A stretch of 63,992 nucleotides of DNA, the filler included, from Basidioascus undulatus (Eukaryota), in the NCBI GenBank assembly GCA_000826855.1. It is 4 parts of 4 records of this genome, joined end to end, with 100 filler letters (N's around TTAATTAATTAA, not from the genome) between each part and the next. Parts side by side here need not be neighbours in the genome. Positions count along the whole stretch, not along the records: positions 1 to 16,363 come from JTLS01000589.1; 3 more parts are not named here. One strand, given 5' to 3'. A program made the translations under genes and the position numbers. Of this stretch, positions 3,754 through 6,852 are shown one piece after another (position 1 is the first letter of the stretch; every line of letters begins with the position of its first letter). The notes under the pieces are model-generated. The model saw only the letters and a program-made list of their open reading frames with translations. It was not told the origin of the DNA and did no database searches.

Positions 3754-5406
3754 TTACAGGTTTCCACGCTCCGCCTGATCACGCTCGATCGCTTCGAAAA
3801 GGGACTTGAAGTTGCCCGCGCCGAAACCCTCGAAGTTCTCGCGCTGGATGATCTCGATGAAAACGGTCGGGCGGTCCATAAGGTTCTTGGTGAAAAGCTG
3901 GAGCAGATACCCGCGCTCGTCAAAGTCGATCAGAATGTTGAACCGTTGAAGCTGGGCAAGGTCCTCCTTCACGTGCAGGCTGACACGCTTGAGACGGATG
4001 CGCTGGATGGGAAAGAATCAGAGGGGGAACATAAGCCTTGTTATGGATGTAAATTAGAAGAGATAGAGGAAAAATGAAACGTACCACGTCCTCATAATAC
4101 GTCGCAGGGACCTTGATGAACTCGATGCCGCGGTCTTGCAGCGCAGAGACGGCCTTGATTATGTCGGGCGTGCGGAGAGCGATGTGCTGAATGCCTGTAG
4201 ACTCGTCAAAACTTAGCTTCGGCTGCGCAGATGTTTACCCACTGCCTCTAACACGAAAGCCGGACGCACCTGCGCCACCGTAGTACTCAACATACTCCTG
4301 GATCTGGCTCTTCTTCTTCCCCTCGGCCGGTTCGTTGATCGGCATCTTCACCCTGGGGTTGCCGCTCTTTAGTTACTTTTCCAAGCGTAGAAAGCCAAAA
4401 AAAATTAAAACTAAAACTTGACGATTGACGCACTTCTCATTCTCGGACGCCATGACGATGGAACGCAGCGCGGAGAAGTCGGTACAAATGTCCTTGTCGT
4501 CGACCGACCAGAATCTGTGGAAACCCAGCGCCTTTTCGTAGCTAAAGGCGGATACGAGAGCGGAAGGGAGCAAAGCGCAGCACATGCGTGAGCACGGTTG
4601 CGAGAGTCAAGAGAGCCGAGAAAGAACAGGACGTACTATTCGCAGGCCTCGTTCATCTTCCCCCAGTCCTGGTTCCCGACGCAGTGGTCGATCCATCCGA
4701 GGCCGACGTCGGGAAGATGCGACTGAATCCGGTCCGCATCGTCGAAAGGTTTGAAGCCCGGTAGGAATGCGCCCTGGTAATGCGAGCGCTCCACAAAAGT
4801 GTGCACCTGGGAGAATGAGCAGATGGGTCAGTAGGAATGTAGCAGAGGGAAGCGTTATATTCCAATGAAAGTGGGACAGTGATGCACCGTGTCGCCGTAC
4901 GTGCGCACTGCCGCAAGACGAACGATTCCATGCTCGTCCTTCAGTTCGTACGGCTCGCGGCTGGAGACGGCGCCCTGGGCAATGGCGGACGTGTAGATAC
5001 CAAAAGCGTCATCGACGGTGAACGCCACGTCGCGGACCGAATCACCGTGCTTGACGAGGTGCTCGTTCATCTCGGGCGCGGCGGCGGCCGTGAGAGGCGA
5101 GCAGAGGACGAAGATGATCTCTCCGTGGCGGACAACGTATGACGCGACCGCGCGGTTGCCCGTCTCGAGCCCAGAGTATGCGACCTTCGCAAAACCGAAG
5201 CGGGTGACGAAGTAAGAGGCAGCCTGCTTGGCATTCCCCACCCACCAGGTGATGTGGTCTGGAGGAAGCGGAAGCACAGAGTTGAATACTGAGGTGGGTT
5301 TTCACCGAGAGGCAACTGCTCACGCACCAAAGGCCTCAAACTGACCACCTGGCCTGGAGGTGGAACGAAAGGCTGTGGACGAGTTGATGATGGTTACAGC
5401 AGCCAT
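3754..5406 (-). CDS. HPD: 4-hydroxyphenylpyruvate dioxygenase (multi-exon)
   Basis: ATG at 5406 gives [33 protein letters not shown]. Metal ligands are intact in 'DHCVGNQDW', 'GIQHIAL' and 'FIEIIQR'. Also '[26 protein letters not shown]' and '[16 protein letters not shown]'. C-terminus '[24 protein letters not shown]'. Confidence 0.97.
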
Positions 5407-5990
5407 TATCTGCGATGCTCGTGAGCAGGGGCGAATAGATTGTGTTGCTCGAGATAAACAATGGCCATTTGTTCATTCATGTTGGGGTCATTTTGAACGA
5501 GAACGACCAGGTCCGCCACCATGCATACACAGGCATGATCAGAAAAACAGCCGAGCTATCCGCGAGGAAGCGAAGCAGGTGAGCACAGCATGTGCCCTCG
5601 CGGTCACCTGCCGGGCGAAAGCGTTCGGTCCCCCTTTTAACAGCCAAAGTTCTGTGGGCAGCAAATCCTTGGATCATTGTCGGCGGCCGTTGAAGAATCA
5701 TGAATTGTCTTCTTGGAATCAAGAGGAAGCCGAAGATACAACAGGGTGTGGAAGGAAAGGCAGAGGAGGAGGCAACCCTGTTCACACAAGCTCGAGGCCC
5801 TGTGACCCCCGCCGCCACCGCCCGTTCCTTTCGCTCGTTCGGTGACCAGTACGATTCAAAATCCTTCACACACAGTCCTTGACCATCTCACACTCTTCAT
5901 CTTCTCTGCCTTTCACCAACCACTGCCTTCCATCGTCCCCTGCCTTCCACAACCCCTGCCTTGACTACACACTGTTCATCAACACAGAAT

Positions 5991-6852
5991 ATGGTCGTCT
6001 CCTCCTCACGAATAGACACGCCTGCGCTATCTGCGCGTGACAAACACGTGTTAGGATTAGTGTTCGACTCGGGTGAGTATAATATCCCGTTTGTAACCGT
6101 GACCTTGAGTTCTGGTGAAGGAAGTTGTCGTTGCTGACTGGACTTGCTGTCAAGAGTCTGCACCTGATGCTAAGCTGGAGATATTAGCCGACCAAGACGA
6201 GCTGCTGCCTGGAACTAGTGTGTTCCTCACACAGCATTTCTATGCTGAAGATGGGCTAATGATGAAGTAGGCTTCCTGCAGTCTGCGCACTGCAAGCAGC
6301 TCGAGATTGACGCCATCCAGAAGGCCGAGGCTGCTGACCTGCGTGGGGCTCTCTGCCTACTCGATACTCTTATTGCAGAGACGCCCAATTGGGCTAGCGC
6401 GTACAACAACCGGTGAGCCCAATCTCTGGAAGGATAATCTAAATGCACTTTCCATTACGCTTTTCACAACCCACTGACGGACGCCCCGTTTCCGCTGCAG
6501 TGCTCAAGTCCGCCGGCTCCTCCATGAGCAGCAAGCAGCTCTGTCCGATATCGATAAGGCAATCCTGCTCTGTACCCCAGCGTCTCCTTCTTCGCCGTTA
6601 TTGCGGAGCCACGCCCGAGTTCTTGCGCAAGCGCACATGCAGCGTGCGGCGGTGTTGAGCGCGTTGCTGCCTCAGGACGACGAAGAGAATGTGGCGAGGA
6701 GGGAGGACCTCATAGCAAAGGAGATATTTCTGGGAGGAAAATATGGGAACGAGTTGGTGAGACAAATGTCGGTGGCTACGAATTCGTACGCCAAAATGTG
6801 CGGGGACATTGTGAGGGCGGCGATTGCCCGGGACTCTGAGGGCAATAATTGA
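5991..6852 (+). CDS. TTC36: Tetratricopeptide repeat protein 36 (TTC36)-like protein; candidate HmgX equivalent
   Basis: Manual splicing (introns ~6073-6154, ~6218-6270, 6413-6500) gives MVVSSSRIDTPALSARDKHVLGLVFDS..CKQLEIDAIQKAEAADLRGALCLLDTLIAETPNWASAYNNRAQVRRL..ALSDIDKAILL..QAHMQRA..GGKYGNELVRQMSVATNSYAKMCGDIV. This matches the TTC36 pattern as I remember it (D-x2-VL-x2-(I/V)F; LE-x2-(G/A)(V/I)-x2-AE; ASAYNNRAQ; C-terminal N(P/S)YA-x-(L/M)C). Confidence 0.85.

Follow-up and report, generated by a model that had tools for sequence, protein, structure and literature searches.

Does a fungal gene for 4-hydroxyphenylpyruvate dioxygenase (HPPD), the second enzyme of tyrosine breakdown, come with a helper gene of its own, and is that helper the one that attends the same enzyme in mammals? 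The question is raised by a locus of Basidioascus undulatus (assembly GCA_000826855.1) in which an HPPD gene lies head-to-head with a small gene for a tetratricopeptide repeat (TPR) protein. Both genes were found in a joined stretch of 63,992 nucleotides, filler included, that was analysed as a whole and is called the window below. A preliminary description of the locus had placed the TPR protein in one family with HmgX of Aspergillus fumigatus and with mammalian TTC36. Our analysis makes it likely that the locus is a two-gene module consisting of HPPD and an HmgX-family helper, and that this helper is very probably the counterpart of TTC36.

HmgX is known from moulds. It was studied in A. fumigatus by Keller et al. 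(2011, PMC3203155) and in Penicillium marneffei by Boyce et al. (2015, PMC4374905); TTC36 was studied in mouse liver by Xie et al. (2019, PMC6753076). According to Keller et al., A. fumigatus HmgX has no conserved domain and tblastn finds no homologue of it in human, C. elegans or Dictyostelium. The hmgX gene adjoins hppD in most ascomycetes, often across a bidirectional promoter. Tyrosine induces it, and an HmgX-GFP fusion is cytoplasmic (PMC3203155). When hmgX is lost, extracts make no homogentisate from 4-hydroxyphenylpyruvate (pHPP); the cluster is still transcribed, and the Tat and HmgA activities are intact (PMC3203155). In P. marneffei, deletion of hmgX gives the same growth defect (PMC4374905); a need for HmgX in turning pHPP into homogentisate is known for these two species only.

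Keller et al. also proposed that a 13-residue N-terminal insertion in HppD is the contact for HmgX (PMC3203155). The HPPD N-terminus that precedes W[WY]VGNAKQ is 30 aa long in the window and 28 to 48 aa among the related loci described below, a range that is uninformative on the insertion.

Two genes diverge from one spacer

Both genes could be modelled from start to stop (Table 1). The six introns of the HPPD gene measure 69 to 95 nt, and all six have GT..AG borders, which were set on the sequence and checked by script. Pfam gave Glyoxalase_5 (the HPPD N-terminal domain) in exon 2 and Glyoxalase in exon 6; as the scan took one exon at a time, neither match exceeds the curated cut-off. Aligned over 363 columns, the spliced protein shares 57% identity with the HPPD open reading frame (ORF) of a related metagenome locus, L034. 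Over its last 35 residues, identity to the HPPD ends of 36 related loci is 77-94%, and it finishes, as they do, with ...RGNL. Both VOC domains of HPPD, the N-terminal and the C-terminal one, are present in the protein, as is the conserved helix at its C-terminus.

The TPR gene has three introns of 82, 53 and 88 nt, again all with GT..AG borders. Exons 1, 3 and 4 match the N-terminal, central and C-terminal parts, respectively, of full-length fungal relatives. Exon 2 encodes a variable linker, and here alternative borders compete: exon 2 may end at 6219, or exon 3 may start at 6268 or 6282. Scored against a hidden Markov model (HMM) of the family, described below, the resulting proteins are nearly equal (212 aa, 182.6 bits; 209 aa, 182.2 bits; 213 aa, 181.0 bits; a spread of 1.6 bits). 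A model that skips exon 2 reaches 158.5 bits, 24 bits below. On these scores the TPR gene is real, with provisional borders between exons 2 and 3.

The spacer between the two start codons presumably serves as a shared bidirectional promoter. The preliminary description had a four-exon TPR gene and an HPPD gene on opposite strands, diverging from a region of about 585 bp, and this arrangement holds at its coordinates, with both coding sequences (CDSs) open.

The TPR gene falls in a family that occupies the hmgX slot

What family does the TPR protein belong to? Exon 4 alone, searched against longer proteins, found six relatives of 212 to 263 aa, with E values from 1.6e-17 to 5.9e-9. A profile built from these six drew 346 proteins from a word-indexed collection. 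In an exhaustive library, the representatives that it matched numbered 200 with a cut-off of E 1e-30, 1006 with one of 1e-10 and 7202 with one of 1e-3, at which level the matches are clearly generic TPR proteins. The family HMM was built from an alignment of 148 members, which has three conserved blocks: LSxxDxxVLxxLFDPE near the N-terminus, PxYASAYNNRAQxxR in the centre and GGRYGN..A..MAV.TNPYAKLCG.IV.EAM near the C-terminus. All three are present in the window protein, where the most conserved motif of the family, PxYASAYNNRAQ, spans the junction of exons 3 and 4. The spliced protein matches the HMM over its full length at 182.6 bits (E 8e-57). The nearest named proxy for A. fumigatus HmgX is a Monascus purpureus protein of 262 aa (E 7.2e-54 in the family list). 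Among the matches listed, 27 carry an organism name, and judging from their genera we take all 27 to be ascomycetes. The preliminary description took the window to come from a likely basidiomycete; its intron-rich genes are compatible with that phylum without proving it.

We then asked which genes accompany the family. Eighty metagenome loci were chosen solely because they encode a family member, and for 16 long loci the flanking ORFs were scanned with Pfam (150 of 174 ORFs; L072 and three ORFs of L046 were dropped). Two loci, L055 and L064, have the order HPPD (-), family gene (+), homogentisate 1,2-dioxygenase (-), fumarylacetoacetase (+), GST (-). Shorter versions run HPPD, family gene, homogentisate dioxygenase (L038); GST, family gene, HPPD (L058); and fumarylacetoacetase, family gene, HPPD (L065). 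A fungal Zn2Cys6 gene lies beside the HPPD/family pair in L004 and L036. In Aspergillus the tyrosine cluster has been described as hppD-hmgX-hmgA-fahA-maiA(-hmgR) (Greene et al. 2014, PMC3914699; Keller et al. 2011, PMC3203155). Because the gene order of L055 and L064 is that of the described cluster, the family fills the hmgX slot. By the position of its family and by its HMM match, the TPR gene of the window is assigned to the HmgX family, as the preliminary description had supposed.

The window protein resembles A. fumigatus HmgX (AFUA_2G04210) in being small and of cytosolic type, in lacking a specific Pfam family and in adjoining hppD, often head-to-head. It differs in three respects. The A. 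fumigatus gene is intronless and 771 bp long (PMC3203155), whereas the window gene has three introns and encodes about 209 to 213 aa. The window protein is divergent and sits on a long branch; its likeness to HmgX is one of slot and family profile. Finally, the window holds the pair alone, without hmgA, fahA, maiA or hmgR: searches of its 64 kb with the homogentisate dioxygenase, fumarylacetoacetase and GST of L055 and with two Zn2Cys6 ORFs found no relative of any of them. The pair was thus rightly described at the outset as minimal. That this intron-rich, divergent locus keeps the two-gene core alone argues for the pair, and not the larger cluster, as the conserved unit.

HPPD and the family gene stay together

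If the pair is the conserved unit, how often is it kept elsewhere? Loci whose TPR proteins are at least 90% identical were merged, which reduced the 80 loci to 56 clusters. A tblastn search with the exons of the window HPPD detected HPPD in 43 of the 80 loci. In 27 clusters HPPD is head-to-head with the family gene, at gaps between detected coding matches of about 313 to 1054 bp and, once, 4351 bp; in six the two genes share a strand, with HPPD downstream. For 21 of the 56 clusters the flank is too short to judge. HPPD and the family gene are therefore kept together in 33 of 35 informative clusters, and the pairing is not due to chance. The head-to-head pairing that the preliminary description saw in the window is thus widely conserved.

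The same-strand arrangement is found in 10 loci (L036, L041, L047, L051, L058, L065, L068, L070, L073 and L075; the six clusters above), with HPPD 697 to 2826 bp downstream. Upstream of the family gene in such loci lie a Zn2Cys6 gene (L036), GST (L058) or fumarylacetoacetase (L065). The HPPD/family pair survives rearrangement of the cluster.

The head-to-head spacers share a short sequence. The 7-mer ATATCCG occurs in 13 of 27 such spacers (26 loci and the window), compared with a maximum of 9 in 30 shuffles, and is surrounded by GCGGATA and ATCCGCC. As a candidate regulatory element common to these spacers, it might be bound by a Zn2Cys6 factor of the HmgR type. In the window spacer we found a one-mismatch copy alone, CTATCCGC at 5556-5563. 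We discarded it as regulatory evidence, for such copies occur at chance level (44 found across the window, 35.5 expected).

Is the helper the fungal counterpart of TTC36?

TTC36 (HBP21) is a small TPR protein, described as having three tetratricopeptide repeats, and its partner enzyme in mammals is HPD, that is, HPPD. As Xie et al. report, it co-precipitates with HPD through the VOC2 domain and lowers STK33 binding, phosphorylation of HPD at T382 and PELI1-driven ubiquitylation; its loss leaves less HPD protein and causes tyrosinemia in mice (PMC6753076). The functional premises of the preliminary description, that TTC36 binds and stabilises HPD and that HmgX is needed for the HppD step, thus agree with the published record (PMC6753076; PMC3203155).

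We compared the family with fragments of TTC36 recovered from published oligonucleotides. A transcription activator-like effector nuclease pair for mouse Ttc36 has two 16-nt half-sites by the ATG, separated by a 17-bp spacer (PMC3885652). Translated by hand, these sites give G-T-P-N-D, six residues, I-F-N-P-D. The N-terminal motif of the fungal family is D, six residues, [LI]-F-[DN]-P-[ED], and the mouse translation is in register with it; the family member P0124 reads TPNDSSVLSQIFDPE at this motif, which lies outside the TPR core. Two further oligonucleotides target human TTC36, namely short hairpin RNA #2 (PMC6753076, supplementary table 2) and small interfering RNA 3 from a second laboratory (PMC8040709). 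Both translate to (R)ASAYN, the core of ASAYNNRAQ, the most conserved block of the family. By our own rough arithmetic, an identity of five residues in a 19-nt oligonucleotide would arise by chance about once in 10^5 to 10^6. Names assigned by UniRef point the same way as far as they can be read: those of five ascomycete members are readable only as 'Tetratricopeptide repeat prot...', and that of the M. purpureus member only as far as 'Tetratricopeptide repeat protein 3'. Together, these fragments make it very likely, in our judgement, that the HmgX family is the fungal counterpart of animal TTC36.

Could the family be a true HmgX partner of HPPD and still not be orthologous to TTC36? The two proteins might have been recruited independently, or be alike in the TPR core alone. 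We regard this as unlikely, although several points favour it. TPR cores are widely alike, as the 7202 library proteins at E 1e-3 against 200 at 1e-30 illustrate, and the xxYxNRA motif, which we count on the same side, is common in co-chaperone TPRs. The comparison covers fragments of TTC36. The tblastn searches of Keller et al. found no homologue in the three non-fungal species (PMC3203155), and TTC36 has other reported clients, such as c-Myc and HSP70. Independent recruitment or a likeness of cores would not, however, readily account for the rest of the evidence. The mouse residues TPND, six residues, IFNPD fit the N-terminal motif in both sequence and spacing, outside the TPR core. Two independent oligonucleotides each encode ASAYN, exactly as in the family consensus. 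Five members have UniRef names of the 'Tetratricopeptide repeat protein 3...' type, read in part only, and HmgX and TTC36 serve the same enzyme (PMC3203155, PMC6753076).

The proposal that HmgX and TTC36 are one family has two parts. The assignment to HmgX is strongly supported, by slot and HMM; the part that concerns TTC36 is supported indirectly, by short oligonucleotide translations and partly readable names.

The predicted fold is that of a co-chaperone-type TPR protein

An AlphaFold2 model of a family member (the L034 ORF, 148-row alignment) is all-helical, with a pLDDT (predicted local distance difference test) of 93.5 and a pTM (predicted template modelling score) of 0.84. Like TTC36, it is a small stand-alone protein with about three TPRs. 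With this model no Foldseek match in the PDB reached E 1e-3; ranked highest were the Hip middle domain (E 1.4e-3), PP5, Hop TPR1, SGT, RPAP3 and CHIP. VIA-align returned a flat list of 50 unrelated TPR proteins at Z 10.3 to 12.7 over model residues 37-224, led by Hop (Z 12.7), SPY, OM64, Sgt1, OGT and Sti1, with STUB1 and Hip also matched. Searched against the PDB, the family profile matched the TPRs of OGT, Hip, SGT1, Hop and TOM70 at profile positions 63-124. Because the VIA-align list is flat across so many unrelated proteins, it speaks to fold and not to function.

The model thus has a core of three TPRs of the co-chaperone type, flanked by ends that are peculiar to the family. The protein shares its fold with the TPRs of Hop/Sti1, Hip, SGT/Sgt2, CHIP/STUB1, PP5 and RPAP3 (VIA-align Z 10.7 to 12.7, 113 to 138 aligned residues). 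Unlike these proteins, the HmgX family stands alone with no second domain, and outside the TPR core it has its own N-terminal LSxxDxxVLxxLFDPE and C-terminal GRYGN...TNPYAKLCG. A complex prediction for residues 1-387 of the L034 HPPD with the 237-aa family protein, run with alignments unused, scored 0.00 and counts neither way.

Perhaps, then, the protein is a general adaptor of the co-chaperone type, with many clients, whose place beside HPPD reflects shared promoter architecture? Its closest solved folds are indeed Hsp70/Hsp90 co-chaperone TPRs (Hop, Hip, SGT, CHIP, PP5 and RPAP3), and TTC36 itself has been described as a chaperone partner of HSP70 and a stabiliser of c-Myc. We nonetheless consider a general role decidedly improbable. 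The structural list is too flat to single out the co-chaperones among 50 TPR proteins, and of the 35 informative clusters, 33 keep the gene beside HPPD, in either of two orientations and also inside full tyrosine-degradation clusters. The effect of hmgX deletion is moreover specific to the HPPD step, Tat and HmgA remaining intact (PMC3203155).

Evidence that weighs against the module

A set of observations weighs against the reading of this locus as HPPD with an HmgX/TTC36-type helper. In Pfam, neither exon 3 nor exon 4 of the TPR gene matched a family at E up to 1, and full-length ORFs of its relatives matched none at 1e-5. A search with exon 4 restricted to proteins of 63 to 203 aa had none of 43 candidates at E 1e-3 or better, a null that follows from the size of the relatives, which exceed 203 aa. 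The window protein has diverged within the family: its identity to any relative is no higher than 43-45%, and in a 40-row tree its end branch measures 2.61 changes per column and lies inside no supported clade. At 6750-6761 it reads NSYA where at least 90% of the 148 members have NPYA; this serine for proline is the only departure from a nearly invariant column that we saw in it. Two clusters with long flanks (a JAABU series of eight loci, and L016) have no HPPD beside the family gene. The comparison with TTC36 spans about 15 oligonucleotide-derived residues in addition to the partly readable names. The STK33/PELI1 route need not be ancestral or apply in fungi; the fungal HPPDs seen here all end at ...RGNL, and position T382 of HPD presumably sits in a tail beyond that end. 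Lastly, the hmgX and hpdA deletions of P. marneffei differ inside macrophages (PMC4374905), and the dependence of HPPD on HmgX may therefore be partial.

Might the TPR gene of the window simply be a decaying or non-functional copy, in a module that no longer works here? The long branch, the substituted proline and the uncertain borders of exon 2 would fit, but the reading frame is unbroken through the four exons, whose splice sites are canonical, the HMM match is full-length at 182.6 bits, three family motifs are kept and the adjoining HPPD is intact, which leaves decay a most improbable explanation.

A model for the HPPD-helper pair

How would a module of HPPD and an HmgX-family helper work? 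Available tyrosine or phenylalanine would induce both genes jointly, as the shared spacer and the Aspergillus data suggest. The TPR protein would be cytoplasmic and, if the mouse data are a guide, would bind HPPD directly. Its action would come after transcription and would be needed for HPPD to accumulate as active enzyme, whether by aiding the folding or maturation of HPPD or by preventing it from being inactivated or degraded. If the helper is the counterpart of TTC36, the pairing of HPPD with a dedicated helper would predate the split between fungi and animals.

The two systems are described in different terms. In mammals the reported route runs through STK33 and PELI1 with T382 as the phosphosite (PMC6753076), whereas loss of hmgX in fungi removes the activity from extracts (PMC3203155). 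More tentatively, and with the odds against it in our estimate, HmgX and TTC36 could be a single ancient maturation factor dedicated to HPPD, kept since before the fungal and animal lineages parted and acting on the enzyme directly, in folding, in metal-site loading or in protection. The STK33/PELI1 phenotype would then lie downstream of unprotected HPD and would not be primary.

Two literatures on what is probably one partnership

Has the link been made before? The literature that we searched, which leaves most subscription journals outside it, holds no paper that names hmgX and TTC36 together. Within it, hmgX combined with tetratricopeptide gives papers on HMGXB genes only; TTC36 combined with fungi gives nothing relevant ('TTC36' in PMC7844877 is a strain name), and the motif SAYNNRAQ was not found in text. 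Reviews and papers of 2025-2026 mention hmgX merely as a cluster gene. The link between HmgX and TTC36 seems, however, to exist already in the names that databases assign automatically. The HPPD-HmgX pair is known in ascomycetes, and the window locus is a new, divergent example of it.

In the literature searched, the work on HmgX (Aspergillus and Penicillium; 2011, 2015) and that on TTC36 (mouse liver; 2019) are without mutual citation. If the two are one family, each would inform the other. Fungal genetics would point to a helper needed for the activity of the enzyme itself, which reframes the mammalian story of degradation, and mouse biochemistry would offer the fungal field a binding domain, VOC2 of HPD. 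Fungal HPPD might then fail in heterologous hosts that lack its neighbour, with a bearing on pyomelanin production and on the screening of HPPD inhibitors. Should the maturation-factor reading be true, the HPPDs of these lineages would generally need a partner for activity, in heterologous hosts included, and TTC36 would become a candidate gene for unexplained human tyrosinemia.

Feature positions and further observations

Table 1. Genes, exons and spacer of the HPPD/TPR locus and other recognisable genes, by position in the window
Feature	Position	Strand	Remarks
HPPD gene	3754..5406	-	7 exons, 389 aa; CDS open over 1170 nt
HPPD start codon	5406-5404	-	ATG
HPPD stop codon	3756-3754	-	TAA
HPPD exon 1	5406-5328	-	
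HPPD exon 2	5258-4888	-	
HPPD exon 3	4806-4637	-	
HPPD exon 4	4541-4434	-	
HPPD exon 5	4352-4270	-	
HPPD exon 6	4194-4085	-	
HPPD exon 7	4002-3754	-	
Spacer between divergent ATGs	5407..5990		584 bp; GC 0.53 (whole window 0.57)
TPR gene, HmgX family (putatively TTC36-type)	5991..6852	+	4 exons, 212 aa in the best model; ATG 5991, TGA 6850-6852
TPR gene exon 1	5991..6072	+	N-terminal family motif (LSARDKHVLGLVFDS), aligns to LSxxDxxVLxxLFDPE of full-length relatives; GTGAGT donor at 6073
TPR gene exon 2	6155..6217	+	variable acidic linker; borders uncertain by a few codons
TPR gene exon 3	6271..6412	+	first TPR and start of second; ends ...PNWASAYNNR; GTGAGC donor at 6413
TPR gene exon 4	6501..6852	+	remaining TPR core and C-terminal family motif (GGKYGNELVRQMSVATNSYAKMCGDIVRAAI); CTGCAG acceptor before it
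ACT-domain protein	1-830		
Proteasome maturation factor UMP1	8521-9072		
DPM2	9159-9791		
Transketolase C-terminal domain protein	18562-19275		

The nearest other recognisable genes of the window, the last four rows of Table 1, are unrelated to tyrosine breakdown.

The eight loci of the series that has no HPPD beside the family gene (L060, L061, L063, L066, L067, L069, L071 and L079) are near-identical, and up to 7 kb of sequence to each side of their family gene is free of HPPD; in L061 a cytochrome P450 gene is upstream in place of HPPD. Either hmgX has moved in this series, or the gene is a paralogue that has a different partner.

The HPPD of L034 (5337-6554, minus strand; 405 aa) is the sole HPPD among the 80 loci that can be read as a single ORF. 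It is without the conserved last 31 or so residues kept in 36 other loci: after FIEI the sequence is unrelated and then reaches a stop, and the surrounding 2 kb contain no recognisable exon for the missing end. The copy may be truncated or decaying; alternatively, its last exon may be distant.

A large, tight clade of intronless members of 211-213 aa (loci L001-L020; proteins P0003-P0047) comes from soil and peat metagenomes, and its members carry no NCBI organism name among the matches listed. Every locus of this clade with enough flank has HPPD head-to-head at 314 to 504 bp, and L004 has a Zn2Cys6 gene as well. The family member P0042 has the source label 'isochorismate synthase EntC' and looks misannotated.

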